55,623 nt of DNA from Vermamoeba vermiformis (Eukaryota), in assembly GCA_045837725.1 (NCBI GenBank), contig JBEWZL010000114.1, positions 1-55,623 on the forward strand, written 5' to 3'. The first letter of the stretch is position 1, and every line of letters starts with the position of its first letter. The notes under the pieces are model-generated. The model did not search any database and was not told the DNA's origin. It saw only the letters and a program-made list of their open reading frames with translations. The translations under genes were made by a program, and so were the position numbers. Below are positions 2,255 through 37,900 of the stretch, one piece after another.

Positions 2255-5200
2255 ATGAACAAACTTCTTACTATCGCGGTTATTTTTGCTTTGGCCGTTA
2301 TGGCTATGGCTCAATGTAAGTCTTCGTAAATTGGGTTTACATCCTCCTATTGTTTCTTAAATCTACTTATTAATATGCTCCTCGTATTGTGTACTAATAT
2401 GTTCCTGGTTTAGCCTGCCCTCCTTCAGGATCAGCTTGCAGCGTATCTGGTTCCCCCTGCGTTATTTCTCAAAGTGGCTCTACTGACTCCAGCGACCCTG
2501 GTGTCTTCCCTAGACGAACCAACCTTTACTTCCCTCCTGCCACTAACACATATACTCAAACCATCACCTTCCCTACCCCCACCGTAGGTGAAGTTATGAT
2601 TCTTCAAGACATTGGCCCTGGCGTTGACGCTGATGACATTTCCTCCGTCTCTAACACCATTCAAGCCTTGTACAACTTCTTGGTTAGGGACTGGCCTTCC
2701 CTCAAGTTGGGCTTTGCTACCTTCAACCAATCCCTCGGTAGCTACATGGCTCGTACCACTTTGTCCAACGATGTCTCAAACAGAGGTTACTTGAAGTCTG
2801 CTATCGATGGTGTCGCTGCTAACTACGCTAGACGCAACGATCCTGTTATGCCTAATGGTGCCGTTTTGGATGCTGTTATTGATGCCGCCAAGGACACCAA
2901 CTTTGGCTGGAGCAAGTACTCTGCTAAGTTCATCATCGTATTGACTCGCTTTGGTTATCCTACTGCCTCTCCTTTCATGGACGCAGCTACCTTCAAGAGC
3001 AACTTGTTGCAATATGGCGCTTTGCCCGTCTTCTGCACCAAGATTGATCAAAACCCCGACGGCAAGTCTCAATTCCAAGCCTTGGTTAACTCTATGAAGC
3101 TCGGTGTTGTTGGTAACGGAAAGTAAGTATAGGACCATTTTCGGCAAGCGAATAGAAATTTCATTTTTTTTCCTTTTTTAGACTCAGCGATTAAATTATT
3201 TATTATCGGCATTGACTAACAGTTATCGCAGCACTCCTTCCAACAACCTCCTTGCTCAAGACCAAGGTAACTGGAACCAACTTGGCAAGTTTGGTGTCGA
3301 TGACCTTCGCACTGGCTACTTCGGCATTGGCAGTGGCAACAACCCTAACATCCAACACGTCATCACCCAAGGTGCTTCTTATGTTCAATCAGTCACCTAC
3401 TCCAAGAGCGGTAGCAACATTATTGCCACCATCGTCTACAAGTGGACCGACCCTGTTTACACTGTCTCTCCTTACGTCGTCATTAACTTTGTCGGCTACG
3501 GAGAAGTCATCACCACTATGAAGACTAACACTCCCCCTACCCTATCATCTGGTAGCTACACTCTTGCTCAAACCGCCACTGCCGATTTCTCTTTGATCGG
3601 TACTGATGTTGATGGCAACACCCTCTCCGTCTCCTACAACGGTCCTTCCCCAGCTCAAGGTATCTTCACTGGTACTTCCTCTACTGCTGGCTCTTCTTCG
3701 ACCACCTTCAGCGGTACCTACGATCCCGTAGACTCCTTCAACGGCACCTTCACTGTTCCTGCTACCGTTTCCGACGGATGCGCCACCGCTTCTGGTCAGT
3801 TGACCTTCACCGTCACCTACGTCAACAAGCCTCCTACTGCTTCTGACATCGCGGTCTCTACTAACAAGAACACCGACAAGACGATCGACTTCTCTCAAAG
3901 CATTTCTGATCCCGACACTGCTACCAACGCCTTGAAGGTTGTCATTGTTTCCTTGCCCCCTGTCTCTTCGGGTACTTTGTTGGTTGGCGGCTCTCCCATC
4001 ACTAGCCCCAACACTCAAATCACTGGCCAGTCTGTAGTCTTCCGTCCTGCTACCAACTTCGTCAGCGTGAGCGATGTTCAGTTTAACTACAAGGTCGTCG
4101 ATACCACTAGCTTGGAGTCTAACACTGCCACCGTCAGCGTTAAGGTCGTCAACACTAACTCTCCTCCTACTTTGAGCACTGACAAGAGTTCCATCACCTT
4201 GGCTAAGTCGAGCACTGCTACCATCACCGTCTACACATCCGATCCTGATGTCCCTGACAACGTTGACGTGACTCTCATTAGCAACTCTGTTAGTGGCAAC
4301 TCCAACTTTGCCTCTATCACCGTTAGCACTGGCAACACCTTCTCTGGCACCAACGAAATTGCCACTAACTTGGACACCAACGGCGGAATGAAGTCGTTTA
4401 CCATCACCTTTACCACTGTTGGTACCACCACCGCCTTCTCTGGTTCATTCTCTTTGCAAGCCAAGGACTCATTCAGTGCTACCTCTGGCACTGTCTCCGT
4501 CGGTGTAACCGTGACTGCTACTCCTCCTCCTGCAAACAATGCTCCTATCACTACGGCCCCTGGTGCTCAAAACACTAACTTGAACACCGACATCACCAAC
4601 ATCCCCCTTACTGGCCAGGATCCTGACGCCGCTGACAATGCCAACTTGAGACTCTTCTTGACTTTGTTGCCTAAGTACGGTACTCTCTTCTACAACAACG
4701 TCGCTGTCACTGCTACCGGTGAATTGGCTACCACTCTCCGTCAAAGCCCTGATTCGACCTTCCCTGTCACTTACAGACCTAACCTCAACTCGATCTCTGA
4801 CGACAGCTTCAGCTTTTACGTGCAAGATTCCTCCGGTGCTACTTCTAGCTCTCGTGTTGTCCCCATCACTATCAACAACACTAACCAGCCTCCTACTTCC
4901 GCTGACAAGACCGTCACCACTCCTCAAGACACTCAAGCTTCTTTCTCTTTGAGCACCTTCGATCCTGAAGGTCAAACCACCACCATTGAGCTTGTTACTG
5001 TTCCTGCTGGTGTTACTCCTTCTAGCGGTTCGGTCTCTGCTCCTTACTCCTTCACCTACGATCCTCCAGCTGGTCAATTCTCTAACCCCGATGGCTCTGT
5101 CTTCGCTACTATGACCTTTAAGGCCAAGGACTCTTTGGGCCTTTCCTCTGTCGCTACTTACACTGTTTCCTTCATCATCGACAGACTCAAGACTCCTCCT

Positions 5201-6874
5201 ACTTCTCAAGACGAGACCATCACCACCAAGCAGAACACCGGTGCCTCTGTTGTTCTTCAAGGCAACGGTCGCGCTCCTGTCGTCGCCGTCATTGACATTC
5301 CTGCCGGCTTCAAGGGCACTTTGTACTCTGACGCTGCTATGACCTCTGCCATCAGCACTGGCTTCGCCACCGACAGCACTCGTACCCTCTATTACATGCC
5401 TCCTCAAGACGGCGTTTCTATCAACGGTGCCATCTTCACTCAATTCTACTTCAAGGCTCGTGATTCTGACAGCTTGCTCTCTACCTCTACCTACACTGTC
5501 ACTATCTACGTTACTCCTAACAACTACGGTGGCTCCAAGACCGTTAACATTGACGAAGATACATTCGGTTTGATCACCTTGGCCCCTACCGATAACTTCG
5601 CTTCCACCGACGGCACTGCTTTGAAGGGCGTTATCTCCGCTGTCAACTCTGGCAATGGTGCTCTCTACTTCTGCACTTCCGAGTCTGCTTGCAGCACTAC
5701 CGCTATCTCTGGCACCCCCGTGATCCCCGCCGATGTCAAGTTCGCCAAGTTTGTCCCTGCTCCCGAAGACTCTGCTTCTCCTTACGCCACCTTCTCTTAC
5801 AAGTTGACTGACACCAACACTGCCATCGAAGCCACTTACGATGTTACCATCAACGTCATCCCCGTCAACGATCCTCCAGTCATCCATCCTGACTTCAAGG
5901 ACCGTGAAAGCACCCCTGCTGACACTCCTCTTAAGTTGACCTACTCTGGCACTGACATTGATGATGCCGTCGAGACTTTGATCAGCGTTGTTACCTACTT
6001 GCCTCAACGTGGTAGCTTGTACCGTATCGTCAACGGTGCTCAAGGAACTGAAATCACTGAAGCCGACAGCGTCGTCCTTGCCACTACCCCTGGCAAGTTC
6101 GAAGTTTTCTTCGTTCCTACCGCTGGCTCTTCTGGTCGTAACTACGCCACCGTTGCCTTCGCCATCCAAGATCCTCACGGTGCTCGCTCCAGCAACGCCT
6201 TCGTGACTATCAACGTCACCCCCGTCAACAGACCTCCTACTGTTACGGTTGGCGGTCCTTACAGAGTCGTTCAAAGCGACACTTTGCCCATCACCGAGAC
6301 CACCGTCGCCGACCCTGATGTTGGCAACTTCAACATGTTGGTCACTCTTCAACTCGAAGCCGGCTCCACTGGTACCTTCACTTTGACTGACGACCGTGCC
6401 TTCAAGGGTCCTTGCTCTTGGAACGCTGACAACACCGTCCTCTCCTGCAAGGCTCCTGAGAACAAGCTCAACAGCTTCTTGGCCTCTTTGACCTTCACTT
6501 CTGACGTTACTGGCGTTCACCACATTGTCGTTACTGTTGATGACTTGAACAACGGTGCTACTTCCGATCTTCGTGGCACTCCTGGTTTGACTGCCACCGC
6601 CACCATGGAAATCACTGTCGTTCCCCCTTCCACCGTCGTTACTGACAACAACAACCAAGACTTGACCATCGCCCTCTCCGTCTCTGGTGCTGGTGCTTTG
6701 GCTGCCCTCGGTATTGGTGGTTTCTTCTTGGGCCGCAAGTTGAAGAAGGCTGCTCCTGCTGATGACTACTTCAGCTTCATGAACGACGACAGCACTGACG
6801 TCAAGATCAATCCTCTGTTCGCTTCCAAGTTCGGAGGTCCTGCTGATAACCCTGTCTACACTGCTCAGGTCTAA
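2255..6874 (+). CDS. Sib (similar-to-integrin-beta)-like type I membrane adhesin: signal peptide, vWA-like domain, cadherin/Ig-like repeats, TM helix, two NPxY/F motifs
   Basis: Exons 2255-2315, 2414-3122 and 3232-6874 join in frame; MNKLLTIAVIFALAVMAMA signal; repeated 'VNxPP..D.D' units; Gly/Ala-rich TM; tail NPLF and NPVY; strong C/T-ending codon bias. Confidence 0.8.
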
Positions 6875-31612: not shown

Positions 31613-31905
31613 TGCAAATGTTTTGAAGCAGACTTATGGATCGGATTTGCAAGCTGGTACGAGTCGTTATTTATTCGTTGTCTATTGAAAATAACCATGA
31701 AAGTGGGAAATACGGCATCTATAGAACTTACTTTAGAAGTATAGCAGCTTCGAAGAGAGTTAGCACTGCGAGTTGTTGCACTGGTGCCGGCGCAGAGTAA
31801 AAATGAACGGCAAAAATTTTATCATTTTAAGTTGCAATTGCAATGGAGCGCCGCGGTTACGACCCCTACTCAGATAAAACTCTTTGTTATAATAAGACAA
31901 CGGAT

Positions 31906-34900
31906 ATGTTTACCTGCCTGGATTGCGGTAAAACGGTGGCACCAGCGACAGCCAAATCCCACCGAAAGTCAGATCAATGCTTGAACGTCGTTATAGCAAA
32001 AGGTAATGTCATATGATGGTTTATAAATATTCCGTAACCAGCGAGAGCATTAAATATTTTTTTTTGCACAAGCACGTAACCACACATCATTATTTATTAC
32101 TCGTTATTGATTAAGTAGTGGTAAATAACATTTCTGTATATCAGTGCCACGTTCTGTCTCCCGGTAAGCAGCCGATCGAACCAACGTTTCTGCATCTCTG
32201 CCGAAAACGTTAAAATTATTAATTCAACTATCATAATAAGTATACACATAATAATTAAAGCAATATGCACGATACAATTTATTTTTCAGTGCTGTTTAAA
32301 GTATTTTCGTAATTTAATCAGTTTTCGCATCCGTGCCTCAAGCAGCCAAATTTTAACGAATTCCTGCGATATCGCACTAATAGTTACTCCATATAGTGTT
32401 CTTTTAAAGCGATAGAGTGTTTGCTAGATTCGTCAAAAAAAATTAAAGTGCCCAGATCGGTTTAGAGTTGGTAAGTAAATGTCTGGTCGCACATTATTGT
32501 TCAAGTTAAATCATTAGCTCGTTATAATTACTAACAGGAAATGCTTCTAGGTTTCAACTTTGAGCAACTTGATTGCGACAACAAATGGCCCGTATTGTAA
32601 ACTTGGGTAGCACCTGCTACCTTGGCTCCGCACTACAGTTACTCTTCAGTGTAGATGGTTTCCGCGAGAAAATTCTTGCTTCAAATCCAACAACAACACT
32701 CGGTGTAGAGTTCAAGAGCTTGTTTCAACAGATGAATGACAGGAAGACTATCAACGTCAGAACATTTGCGCGGCTGCTGGGTATCACTGATGAGCAATGC
32801 CGCAAGAACCATGAAGACATACAAGAGTTTCTATTAAAGCTTAGAAGCAAGTTTGATAGTGATAGTGACATTAAAGTAATCATTGATTCAATATTTAATG
32901 GTGTTTTGCAATCAACTGCGACAACAAGTCAATTAGAGCCCTTTTTTGGTATGTCCTTGCACCAACTACAGCAAGCTTCTAACTGATTACAGACATATCC
33001 ATTCCTGTTAGCCATAAGGATGTTGTAGAGGGACTAATTAAAGCCTTCCATGATGTAAGTTTAGGCACTACTTGCAAATTTCTGACCGATGACTAGGTTC
33101 GAGTTGAGCACAAGTTTGCTTGCTTTCCAAATGCTCTATTGCTACATTTGAAGCGTTTTAGTATTGGGCAAAAGGTAGAGACACGCTGTGACTTCAAGAA
33201 GCGAATGGTTATCCCGGCAAAACTTAGTGCAAGTGGTCGTGCAGAGACTTATGTACTTAAATCCATTGTAATGCATGATGGTACAGTGAACGCAGGCCAT
33301 TACTTCATTTACACAATCACTAATGGCCAATGGTTCGAGCTGAATGATGAAAAAGTTTCAATGGGTGTATATATATATTACTAGTACTACTTAAGACTAA
33401 CTGACTGCAGGTTGCTGACACATTCATGTCTCAAACTATGGCTGGCAAGAGGTCAGCTTACATGCTACTTTATGTCCTTGAGAGGGCATCCTCACCAACA
33501 AAAGCAACACAACGCCCTCGCACATCAAAAGTCACTGCTGAATTTGTTCAGTGGGATAGTGTTTCATCTGATGCTGCTGAATCATATAGCTCAGGCAGTG
33601 AATTTTCATTTGATGATGAGTACTATGCAGATGACTGGGTCATGGAAAACCCAGCTCCAGAGAGTGATAGCTCAGAATCATCAGTTGCAAAGACATCCTC
33701 GGTTACTTCAGGTATGTTGGTAACAAGTAAGTTAGTTTTATTAATAGTATTTCAGCAACAAAGCGTCAAGCTAAATTAGCTGGTTGGAAAAATGATGGCA
33801 ACGATTTTGCCCCCAGTAAATCAAGCCTTCCTCCCGCAGCAGGCCCCAAACGGCCAATTATTTTGCAGTTGATTAATGACATTAGAAAAGAAAGATCTCA
33901 GTCTCCATTAAAATCAACATTGGATGTTACAGAGCAAGACTGTTATTTGCTGATTATGCATAGAATAATCAAACACATTGAAGAAAAAACACCTGCAGAA
34001 CTCAAAATAACTGTGAACGACATCAAAGCTTACTTAGGAGTTCGAGTGGCTCAACAATTAGCACCAGGACATGCAGTAGATGATGCATGGGCAAGCTTTT
34101 CACACTCTAGAGCAATGTGGGGCAATCGATGGATTGCCAAAACGATGTTGAAAGATGAATACAAACACATTCACCAGCACAAAGAGTAAGTCCTTTTGTA
34201 ATACCACAAACCATACTGACAGTCGTGTAGTTTTGACTTATATTTTGTTTGGGAGACCCTCAACAAAATATACTCTGAAATCTGGACCCCTTATGGACAT
34301 GTGGCACTTGATGACAAAGCCAATGCTTGGAAGGGACGATCCGTATACAAAATCTATCGACTTCGCAAGCCCTTTCCATGGGCAATGTTAGAATATGTTA
34401 TTGTTGATGAATATGGATGGATAATTGGCTTTATTCCCCGTTATGGCAATTTTGCAACAATTACTCCAAAGTACAAGTCATGGAAGGATAGTTACAACCA
34501 ATACAAATCAAATTCTGGTCCAAAACCTCTACCTTTTAAAACCATCCACCCAAGAACTAGCAAGACCAATTTTGATTTAGAGAAAGCAATCAACTTTCTG
34601 CTATCTCGATTACCAGACAAAGCCTCTGGAAAGCCAGCAGACTTTGTTTCCCAACCAACACTGAAGACAGATTGGACAGCAGAGATTGCTCGCGACCTGT
34701 CATCATACCATGTATTCAGTGATCGAGAATTCTCTGCATACTGGCAGCATTACCAGAAATACAACATAGGTTACACTGTTGGAATAGTTAGCAATTCATT
34801 TCCGTTCTTGTTTCGAGACAACTTGGCTATTGGCTTGGAACCTGGGGATTGGAAATCACTCACTAATATGAAGGAGATTGTGATGTCTTATTATGATCCA

Positions 34901-37900
34901 CAAGGCACTGTATGTCATTGGGCTAGCAACCGTGGCACCAGCGAAGCCATTTCAGAAGTAACAAACAAAGACAACAAAAAACAGAAGTTGAATTATTCAA
35001 CACCACACTTGGTTCAACAGTATAGAAAGTATTTTGCAGCAGTGGATAAGCATAATTATAAGGCAAAGAAGTTTTGTTGGCCATATCGCACCAGAAAAGT
35101 CACAGAACGTTACGTATTTGGAGATTGGGAGAGGTCAGCGCAAGTGCAAGCAGAAATTTTGTACCGGCAGCTTTCTGGAAGAGATATCTCAGCAAAGCAG
35201 TTTTTGGCAAATTTGGCCAAACAACTAGCTTCCGATTTTAAAACAAAGAGAAAAAGAACTCTCACTATTGATGCTTTGGACCTGGCCAATGCAGCAAGTC
35301 GACACAATCCTTACACCCATGTTTGTGCATATGAATTCAAAGAATCAAAAAGATGCTTTTACTGCCAAACAAACAAGATTTATTCGTCAACATTGTAAGT
35401 ACATCAAACTAGAACGAGTTATTGTTAACATTCTCCAGGTATAAATGCTTGCAGTGCAAAGTGGCTCTCCATAAGAAGTGCTGGAAAAAATTTAAGGGTG
35501 TAAATGTTTAAATTTGTAATGACATGTTGTATTACTGAAAGTAGTGCAATGGCATGTTCCATGTTGTGGTGTGACATGATCATGAAAGTGACTGCAGCCA
35601 CTTGACGCAAAGAAGGTCGGGTGTAGGCTTTGGCCTTTGGGTTAAGTCAGTGACTGCAGATTCATTGCACTATTATTCTGCTGGACCTACAGCTGTGTGG
35701 CATGTTCCATGTTGTGGTGTGACATGACCCAAGTATGGGCTGGACTTGATTTGACACGACAAAGGTCGGGTGTAGGCTTTGGCCTTTCGGAATGAGTCGA
35801 TCACTCCAGATTCACATAGCTGACGATGGTTTGGGCTATTATTGAGCTTTGAATGAGTTTTTACCAATATTTGGCTATCGTCTACATTGTATACAAACAG
35901 TTGGTTAAGGAATATTATTTAACATAAAGGCAGTTTACGAAAAGATTATAGCTGCTTCCTTTGAAGAGGATCCGATTCAGATTCAGACCAATAACGAGCT
36001 TGCAGCAGCGCCTTCATTTGGGAGAGAATTTATCATGACTTTAAACGATGAAGAGACATGGGTTTCTGAGGCTTTCGTGGCATTTGGACATACTTGGTAA
36101 TGTTATTTTCTAAAACGAGCTTCGAATCTGAATCCAAATTTTTAGGCAATTCGCTGCCAAAAAAAAATACAATCGGACCTACATTTATTTAAAATATATC
36201 CCAATGAGCGATATAGAATATGATATTCATTTCAACTTGGACATCAAAGTTAATGACAAGATCCGTAAGTTGCTGATCGACTTAAAGAGACGCAATTTCC
36301 TGACATTTTGCAGATGAATTCACAGATTTGCATATAAATACGATAGAAGATGAAGATATTTACATCAAATTTGAGGAGATTTTTGACGCGTTCGAGTTTG
36401 ACTTGATCAAACTGTCAATCAGGAAGATCGAACGAAAGAACGAAGAAGAGTAATGTGGAATTTAATTAAAAACATTACTAAATATTATTTTAGCGATTAT
36501 GAAGCGACTGAATTTCGCTCAAAACGACTCGAAACAATTCATTCGCAATACATCAACAAGCACGCCCGTTTGATAGATCAGTGGCTTTGTAAATGGCAGA
36601 TAAATCGTAAGAATATACAAATATTTAATTAAATAATTAACAACGTAATTTTAGGCCAAGCTGCTCTCGAGTTGTCGCAGATTCACCACACGCCAGGTTG
36701 GATTTCGACCCTTACCGCTCCGACACCCCACATCTACGATCAAATAAGGCCACACTTTTTCAGAGCATTTAAAATGAAGAATCTTGTTTGCAATATTGAT
36801 GGTGTCGACTTTGATCTCCCGTATAATACGCTGGAATCAATTTTGGATCACGTGCTCGAAAGTCCCAAGTTTATGAAAGGTATTTGATTAATATTTAATT
36901 TATTTATAACGCCGAATTATTCCGCAGGTTGGCATTACAAGTCGCAAGATAAGGATCCAAACCACCCGTCAAGTCGTCAAGCGTTCAAGATCTACGAAAC
37001 AGAACACAAAAAGCGTATTGATGCTGGCTACCAACTCGTTCTTCCCTATGTATGGATTGATCATTTTGTTGGTCAAGAGAGCAGAAACAACAGCTTCGGT
37101 TCTGTCATGGTTTCATTCGCTAACTTCTCTACGGATGTGTTGATGACACAAGAATCAAGGTTCTTGGTCGCTACAATTCCTCCTAATTTAAAAGAATTTC
37201 AAGACGACATTATCGACAAGATCATCGTTGATTTCTGCGTACAATTGGAAGAGGGCACACTCGCTAAGAAGAAATTTCCATTGCTTAAAGAGCCAGCTCG
37301 AATATGCGGCGGTCTCTATTGCGTCAAGGCGGATCACGTTGAGAAAGTTGGCCTTGCTGGGGTCGTCGCTACAGGTGGTCATGTCCTGTCCGTTTATACA
37401 ACTACACCAAGACATCGGATTACAGATGTCAACTACAAACGAGAATTCCGAGACCCAATGAAGTGTGAGTTAAATTAAATAATATTCGTACATGCGATAC
37501 TAATTCGCACTTATCACAGCGAAAGAAAAGGTTGATAATTGGTCAAGGTTACCAAAATCAAAACAAAAAGCAGCAACATACTCATCAGGCCTTACCGGCA
37601 AAAAAGTACGTACCTATTTAAAGTCAAAAATGAATCTAATTATTAGTAGTCACCATTCTGGCGACTGAAAATATTTTCGAAAGACTTCTACATGCGATTT
37701 GCCATCTGTTCGTTGCACCTGCTGCATCTCGGCATCGCTAAGAAGTACACTCAAGAAATTAGTCATTTGTTTCCGGTCGCTAATAAGAAGATGCCTAACA
37801 ACAACGATGTCGATGACAAAGGAAAGAAGAAAAAGAAGAAGAAGAAGAAGAAGAAGAAGGAACAAAAGTACCAAAAGAGTAAGCGATTTATTTGACGCAT

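Follow-up and report, generated by a model that had tools for sequence, protein, structure and literature searches.

An apparently intact gene joining a USP-class deubiquitinase to a piggyBac-family transposase in Vermamoeba vermiformis

Positions 32585-35511 of a 55,623-nt stretch of DNA from Vermamoeba vermiformis (contig JBEWZL010000114.1 of assembly GCA_045837725.1, positions 1 to 55,623 of the forward strand, referred to here as the window) very probably contain one intact gene, in which a deubiquitinase of the ubiquitin-specific protease (USP) class is fused in frame to a complete DDD transposase of the piggyBac family. Judged from the sequences, a true fusion is strongly supported, and the main support is a comparison with the same fused gene on a 4379-nt metagenome contig, L001, recovered in a scan of metagenome contigs. 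Around this gene we built a wider explanation that we consider somewhat probable as a whole, in which the intact fused gene would be the cargo of a mobile unit, the attached deubiquitinase would act in cis, and structured repeats 3' of the coding region would serve as RNA elements.

The fused reading frame and its counterpart in a second organism

The gene is read on the + strand from seven exons (32585-32948, 32993-33054, 33097-33366, 33411-33711, 33756-34185, 34231-35394, and 35439-35511) that together give 2664 nt, or 887 codons and a TAA stop, and are separated by introns of 44, 42, 44, 44, 45, and 44 nt, all of the GT..AG type. A preliminary description of this locus had proposed seven phase-consistent exons coding for about 887 residues, and when the exact exons were rebuilt they gave one 887-aa frame. 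Inspection of the intron sequences revealed in-frame stops in both introns with a length divisible by three, and the open frame therefore requires splicing. The reading frame of exon 7 (35439-35511) is not among the listed long open reading frames (ORFs), and the exon encodes the latter half of a Cys-rich domain; a profile of transposase C-termini matched across the exon 6/7 junction, bearing out the earlier view that this overlooked exon completes the domain.

When the spliced protein was compared with L001 by tblastn, every part was found, in order and on a single strand. Our hand-built model of the L001 gene has exons of 364, 62, 270, 304, 424, 1167, and 73 nt, forming a 2664-nt frame of 887 aa, and introns of 44, 54, 39, 43, 46, and 48 nt whose six positions and phases match those of the window gene. 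Because a frame of equal length is open in L001, with insertions and deletions in multiples of three only, the seven-exon model is, by this comparison, no chance open frame. The idea of an in-frame fusion of USP to piggyBac is thus upheld by comparative evidence, since a second organism retains the complete frame together with each of the six intron positions, and this was also the outcome of looking for a matching architecture elsewhere.

The two genes were 65.3% identical over 884 aligned codons, with identities of 57.8% in the USP domain, 30.8% in the linker that follows it, 71.7% in the N-terminal region of the transposase, 73.0% in its core, and 82.5% in the Cys-rich domain. Synonymous divergence (dS, NG86 method) was either undefined through saturation or greater than 2.5, and the corresponding nonsynonymous values (dN) were 0.32, 0.96, 0.22, 0.19, and 0.10, with a dN/dS of about 0.065 in the catalytic core. 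Differences at codon positions 1, 2, and 3 were 0.36, 0.19, and 0.63 for the USP domain and 0.22, 0.13, and 0.50 for the core. A third lineage is represented by P0051, a fragment of exon 1 whose identity is 66% to the window gene and 59% to L001, and which shares its start (MARIVNLGSTCY) and its exon-1 end with the window gene. Based on the pattern of conservation in both halves of L001, together with P0051, we concluded that the two halves have been kept together under purifying selection; by these measures the fused frame is under such selection in at least two lineages.

Between the two enzymes lies an acidic, Ser-rich linker (residues 258-337; 33486..33769, + strand) that spans the 33711/33756 junction, is 31% identical to that of L001, and weakly resembles the acidic N-terminal tail of a stand-alone piggyBac-like protein, P0007 (E 0.04, low complexity). 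This weakly suggests that the linker is the transposase's own acidic N-terminal tail. The linker is also where the model could have merged two adjacent genes in error: a small USP gene whose last exon is exon 4, and a separate piggyBac gene that begins within the linker or beyond it. Poor linker conservation and a junction without RNA support would fit such an error, as would the fact that retention of intron 4 would end the frame soon after exon 4 (ORF 33405-33779). Two observations weigh against a single fused product: support for one mRNA is limited to the conserved joined frame, since 0 of about 39 million records in three species-labelled RNA runs matched, which amounts to no test; and in-frame Met codons are present in the linker of both organisms, so that an internal start is possible. 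These Met codons do not occupy aligned positions, however, which argues against separate genes, and the linker is free of in-frame stops in both organisms, its length differences being multiples of three (exon 4 measures 301 nt in the window and 304 nt in L001, exon 5 430 and 424 nt). Moreover, a phase-1 intron stands at the matching place in L001, and exon 5 has no Met ahead of the region homologous to the N-terminal domain of its relatives. We regard two misjoined genes as very unlikely.

Upstream of the start codon, a candidate intron of the 5' untranslated region (UTR) was noted by eye at 32472-32537, with a GTAAGT donor near 32472 and a ACTAACAG acceptor at 32537, and a short upstream ATG follows just after the acceptor, at 32541.

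Domains and catalytic residues of the two enzymes

Domain searches were made exon by exon rather than on the joined protein. The USP/UCH peptidase domain covers residues 1-257 (32585..33485, + strand; exons 1-3 plus the first part of exon 4) and was recognized both by the Pfam UCH family (PF00443) and by alignments to USP34 and Ubp8. Exon 1 matched UCH with E 6.3e-12 and 46.1 bits over profile positions 3-134 of 254, and exon 3 with E 1.1e-15 and 58.4 bits over positions 141-236 of 254, so that the two exons jointly span positions 3-236 and each exceeds the curated Pfam cut-off of 23.9 bits. Among solved structures, the best alignment of exon 1 was to USP34, in the Cys box (E 8.3e-6), and that of exon 3 was to yeast Ubp8 (E 1.7e-6). 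The Cys box, NLGSTCY, immediately follows the start codon; its putative catalytic Cys11 (32615..32617) aligns with the Cys box of USP34 (chain 7w3r_A) and is kept in L001 and P0051, with Asn6 (32600-32602) five residues ahead of it. His210 of the GHY box (33298..33300) aligns with His427 of Ubp8 (3m99_A numbering), and at the third catalytic position, Asn225-Asp226 of the ELND motif (33343..33348), Asn225 aligns with Ubp8 Asn443; both are kept in L001, as the identification of a USP Cys, His, and Asn/Asp box in the preliminary description would lead one to expect. No close cellular USP was found: longer proteins gave no match, and among proteins of similar length the orthologous fragment P0051 was the only one.

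The transposase half appears on the same kind of evidence to be complete, with an N-terminal region, an RNase-H-like core, and a Cys-rich domain predicted to bind DNA. No Pfam family exceeded threshold in exons 4 and 5. Exon 5 is nonetheless homologous to residues 90-216 of P0007 (BLASTP, E 1e-9), which defines the N-terminal region of a piggyBac-type transposase at residues 338-475 (33770..34185, + strand; 72% identity to L001). The catalytic core (34231..35293, + strand) was recognized in exon 6 by the Pfam family DDE_Tnp_1_7 (PF13843; E 9.1e-10, 38.8 bits against a curated cut-off of 22.4 bits), so that both profiles named in the preliminary description score above their cut-offs. The Cys-rich domain (residues 831-887; 35294..35508, + strand) is interrupted by intron 6 (35395-35438); a profile that we derived from eight canonical piggyBac proteins, using the 75 C-terminal residues of each, matched spliced residues 829-882 at 20.8 bits and brought the Cys and His positions into register. 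Given the homology of exon 5 to the N-terminal region of a stand-alone protein and the Cys-rich match, the USP domain was therefore probably added ahead of a complete transposase.

The best matches of exon 6 in PDB sequences were piggyBat (9c0f) and piggyBac (6x67), with weak E-values of 0.41 and 0.6, and in these weak pairwise alignments Asp503 (34310-34312) pairs with D268 and Asp748 (35045-35047) with D447 of piggyBac, and Asp640 (34721-34723) with the matching Asp of piggyBat, positions that we take to be the catalytic residues of those enzymes. All three were invariant in an alignment with eight relatives (A1) and either invariant or at least 90% conserved in one with 31 relatives (A6). 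An AlphaFold model of exon 6 based on 31 aligned sequences had a predicted local distance difference test score (pLDDT) of 84.5 and a predicted template modelling score (pTM) of 0.80. Compared with the PDB by Foldseek, this model ranked 6x67_C, 9c0f_C, and 9c0f_D first to third (E 1.6e-11 to 5.5e-10, probability 1.00, template modelling scores 0.48-0.52), with 6x67_C the best at E 1.6e-11; the next match was the Tn5 transposase (E 1.7e-4). The structural match to piggyBac on which the original assignment could have failed was thus obtained, and so were the three piggyBac-equivalent Asp residues. The positions first given for Cys11 (32615), His210 (33298), Asp503 (34310, VALDD), Asp640 (34721, VFSDRE), and Asp748 (35045, AVDKH) were exact, and the claim that both active sites are retained agrees with the alignment of Cys11, His210, Asn225, and the three Asp residues to solved enzymes. 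In the interval between Asp503 and Asp640 we also observed an insertion of about 60 residues (34380-34620, residues ~525-605) with the pattern PRYG...KPLPFK...SKT.FDL....LLS.LP, which is conserved across the divergent piggyBac clade of this gene and absent from canonical members.

An exhaustive HMMER scan of exon 6 against 1.84 billion representatives returned 41 matches with E <=1e-3, 11 at 1e-10 and seven at 1e-30, and the nearest clusters hold one to five members. Two of the matches, P0001 (73% identity) and P0002 (58%), are close orthologous fragments with similar DDE_Tnp_1_7 scores; P0003 and P0005 to P0008 form a stand-alone piggyBac-like sister group at about 30% identity, and the remaining matches are canonical piggyBac proteins at about 20%. 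The UCH family was absent from all 26 relatives scanned with Pfam (22 of the 41 matches and four cluster members, the other 19 matches, all shorter than 430 aa, lying outside the scan), and DDE_Tnp_1_7 was present in all of these but P0011 and the bacterial repeat protein P0036. Word-indexed searches for longer related proteins scored 0 of 2597 candidates for exon 6 and 0 of 400 for exon 1, and none of 99 pattern matches in viral contigs was confirmed.

Some features of both halves would be expected of a decaying relic, in which the frame has stayed open and enzyme function has been lost in one or both halves. By inspection of the sequence, the USP domain has a short finger region with no zinc-binding CxxC pairs, so that ubiquitin binding is not assured, a point that also weighs against a working deubiquitinase in the fusion, and the DDE_Tnp_1_7 score of 38.8 bits is modest beside the 130-310 bits of canonical members. 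However, two lineages preserve the full set of six catalytic residues despite saturated synonymous sites, and the low dN/dS of the core, the 82.5% identity of the Cys-rich domain, and the confidently folded exon-6 model likewise argue against decay, which we consider highly improbable.

Candidate boundaries of the unit and its 3' structured repeats

Nucleotide similarity to L001 continues for about 400 nt beyond the stop codon and ceases at about 35918. The final block of conservation, an 18-nt motif (35898..35915, + strand), has exactly the same sequence in L001 and contains a TTAA at 35905-35908. Beyond it, the flank aligned to that of L001 with a score of 20, which 191 of 200 shuffles reached (shuffle mean 22.8). 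The surroundings of the TTAA are repeated upstream in inverted orientation: a 15-nt copy (14/15) of 35902-35916 lies at 32026..32040 (+ strand), 545 nt upstream of the start codon, and places a GTAA at 32034-32037 opposite the 3' TTAA. In a 200 x 200-nt comparison, the score of this candidate 5' boundary was reached by two of 300 shuffles, and that of its cross-species version by five of 300. Between it and the gene lies a conserved patch (32194..32253, + strand) at a similar distance from the start codon in L001, where it aligned at 75.8% over 62 columns (E 8e-5) and scored 43, a value that none of 200 shuffles reached (shuffle mean 22.7, sd 2.6). A match of the candidate 5' end to L001 383-397 (13/15, E 0.5) was rejected, since it was not collinear with this significant patch.

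Read as a piggyBac insertion, the unit would extend from 32038 to 35904, about 3.87 kb with ends CCA...TGG, and the original site would have been a perfect 20-bp palindrome, AATATTCC-TTAA-GGAATATT. In our explanation, the fused gene would be the cargo of this low-copy piggyBac-like unit, whose left limit would be the GTAA and whose right limit the TTAA inside the palindromic site, and the unit would probably lie in a former short intron of a host gene. We favor a mobile unit because similarity to L001 stops about 10 nt past the TTAA, an inverted copy lies upstream, the flanks are unalike, and the flanking ORFs join; on these sequence features we lean slightly toward a unit that is, or recently was, mobile.

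An ORF at 31843-32002, which ends at a GT at 32003 and has a weak, sub-threshold match to a LYAR-type zinc finger (E 0.004), joins in frame with an ORF that starts at 35910, after an AG at 35908-35909; the latter (35910-36096) continues in frame across a 49-nt intron into an ORF at 36146-36270. A second donor/acceptor pair also joins the flanking ORFs in frame across the unit. Removal of the unit would leave an intron of 36-50 nt, near or within the 39-54-nt range of the gene's introns in the window and L001. Since the flanking ORFs join in frame, the unit may therefore occupy a former 36- to 50-nt host intron, which suggests that the fused gene is nested in an intron of a host gene.

Several observations weigh against a canonical mobile element. 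A generic repeat search and a shuffle comparison yielded no canonical terminal inverted repeat, the ends inside the TTAA sharing only CCA/TGG; the left boundary reads GTAA rather than TTAA; and seven bases past the right TTAA are conserved in L001, which plain target duplication does not explain. The gene is present in a single copy within the 55.6-kb window, and no second copy of the 18-nt end motif was found in the window or L001, nor any further copy of another terminal or subterminal motif or of the 3' units described below. L001 extends no more than 522 nt ahead of its start codon and so narrowly misses the place at which a 5' boundary would be predicted, and the 60-nt upstream patch resembles a promoter or an element of the 5' UTR.

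The interval from the stop codon to the 3' boundary holds two tandem repeat units of about 149 nt (window 35540-35840, L001 3484-3786), comprising structured units of about 133 nt at 35542..35672 and 35690..35822 (both + strand), and their presence in both organisms implies that the duplication predates their split. Each contains a 30-nt motif (35550-35579 and 35698-35727) that is identical in both window units and differs by one base in both L001 units. RNAalifold applied to the four units gave 47 pairs and -46.96 kcal/mol on the + strand and -23.38 kcal/mol on the opposite strand. Fourteen pairs had changed on both sides, 94.7% of cells were paired compared with 84.2% in shuffles, none of 500 shuffles reached any of five measures, and slid controls paired at 32-38%, controls that are indicative only because the four sequences are related and the structure was derived from them. 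The closing stems of the four units are all different in sequence and all complementary, the 30-nt core is an almost invariant hairpin, and a single unit folds at -53.8 kcal/mol (z -4.6). The compensatory changes favor a structure formed in RNA or in a single strand over a site bound as a duplex, and the units are most likely RNA elements of the transcript. No Rfam family matched them at gathering scores or at E up to 5, and a covariance model run over 63,010 bases detected no additional copy and listed two of its four training units, which have overlapping spans. Assignment as a snoRNA or hammerhead, from motifs seen by eye, was dropped, as the box sequences were not conserved among the four units.

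Much of this non-coding evidence would suit a domesticated host gene, that is, an old piggyBac insertion that lost its mobility and, as happened with PiggyMac and the PGBD genes, was retained by its host, here to supply a nuclease or DNA-binding protein equipped with a deubiquitinase; the upstream patch would serve as promoter and the 3' structured repeats as UTR. In favor of this, the TTAA encloses no terminal inverted repeats, the window holds a single copy, and the upstream patch is conserved at an equal distance from the start codon. The conserved non-coding parts covary as RNA does, unlike duplex binding sites, and relatives are rare (41 matches in 1.84 billion, with nearest clusters of one to five members). 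Saturated synonymous sites, strong constraint on both halves, and six conserved intron positions are also consistent with domestication, but the lineage of an active element would be expected to show purifying selection and intron conservation just as well, and the retained catalytic Asp residues and Cys-rich domain are compatible with either. Less easily accommodated are the stop in similarity at the TTAA, with its inverted copy upstream, and the 3' flank beyond 35918, which is unalike in the two organisms even though a window ORF begins there. We therefore treat domestication as a substantial alternative, though one we would not expect to prove correct.

A more elaborate version of the mobile-unit explanation is, in our judgment, unlikely: a self-contained, site-specific piggyBac-type element or excisase cassette, whose USP-armed transposase would recognize the 20-bp palindrome and excise without a scar from the host intron, with the USP domain governing how stable the enzyme is or how its break is signalled through ubiquitin, and the 3' RNAs acting as cis-regulators of expression or transposition.

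Elsewhere, the window is clearly eukaryotic, with about 39% G+C, and its neighboring ORFs include SibA-like Ig, kelch/EGF, GH113, and ankyrin proteins. A 1230-aa open frame at 3182-6874 with SibA-like Ig, bacterial cadherin-like, and Big_9 domains sits in a block of about 50% G+C, far above the rest of the window.

Possible function and comparison with known systems

In the mobile-unit explanation, the C-terminal half would bind DNA and cut at TTAA as piggyBac enzymes do, and the tethered USP domain would remove ubiquitin in cis, either from the transposase itself, stabilizing it, or from chromatin or repair factors at its break, while the two 3' structured repeats would function in the transcript as RNA elements. 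The preliminary description had likewise proposed, as hypothetical roles, that the deubiquitinase could let the transposase resist destruction by the proteasome or strip ubiquitin from chromatin. Ubiquitin governs both the turnover of transposases and the cellular signalling and repair of the breaks they make, two factors that often restrict these enzymes. A transposase-USP pairing that is long kept and apparently active suggests that removing ubiquitin on site may benefit cut-and-paste transposition or a domesticated nuclease descended from a transposase. The pairing would also add the USP class and the piggyBac superfamily to the theme of transposon-borne deubiquitinases, alongside the OTU and VTD domains of Helitrons, and for biochemical study it provides a small USP (about 257 residues) and a divergent clade of piggyBac. 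Our full-text literature search, which excluded the supplementary domain tables of PMC12062965, found no description of a USP-piggyBac fusion. What is apparently new here is the occurrence of the USP class on the piggyBac superfamily with both enzymes apparently intact, the two underlying themes being known.

With the USPs for which we made comparisons (yeast Ubp8 and human USP34, USP36, and USP2), the fused domain shares a Cys box with its Asn, a GHY His box, and an Asn/Asp after a conserved Trp. In contrast to cellular USPs, it is compact (257 residues), with a short finger lacking the zinc-ribbon Cys pairs and with no accessory domains. With piggyBac of Trichoplusia ni (6x67) and piggyBat (9c0f), the gene shares the DDE_Tnp_1_7 domain, the three Asp motifs, and the best structural match, as well as an acidic N-terminal tail, a C-terminal CxxC...CxxC...H..C domain, and a TTAA at the 3' edge of the conserved unit. 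It differs from them in belonging to a divergent clade, with about 20% identity to canonical proteins and about 30% to the stand-alone sister group, in having a clade-only insertion of about 60 residues after the first Asp, and in bearing a 257-residue USP ahead of the transposase; no canonical terminal inverted repeats were found for it.

Most vertebrate transposase fusions retain DNA-binding parts only. PMC12062965 names CSB-PGBD3 and SETMAR as host-transposase fusions. Among such fusions and domesticated piggyBac genes, CSB-PGBD3, PGBD1-5, and ciliate PiggyMac likewise combine piggyBac in frame by splicing with an unrelated domain, are under selection, and are apparently single-copy. In the fused gene, by contrast, the partner is a deubiquitinase and stands N-terminal to a complete transposase that keeps its catalytic triad.

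The preliminary description had held that proteases borne by transposable elements are typically of the Ulp1 or OTU type. Ulp1 proteases are present in Mutator-like elements. The OTU part of the statement is supported by PMC9741609, which describes OTU and VTD deubiquitinase domains within Helitron and Helentron reading frames, and whose authors propose that these domains shield transposition proteins from proteasomal degradation. The fused gene resembles these elements in having a thiol protease of the ubiquitin system in one frame with a transposition enzyme, but its protease is a USP (family C19) and its transposition enzyme is of the DDD cut-and-paste rather than the rolling-circle type.

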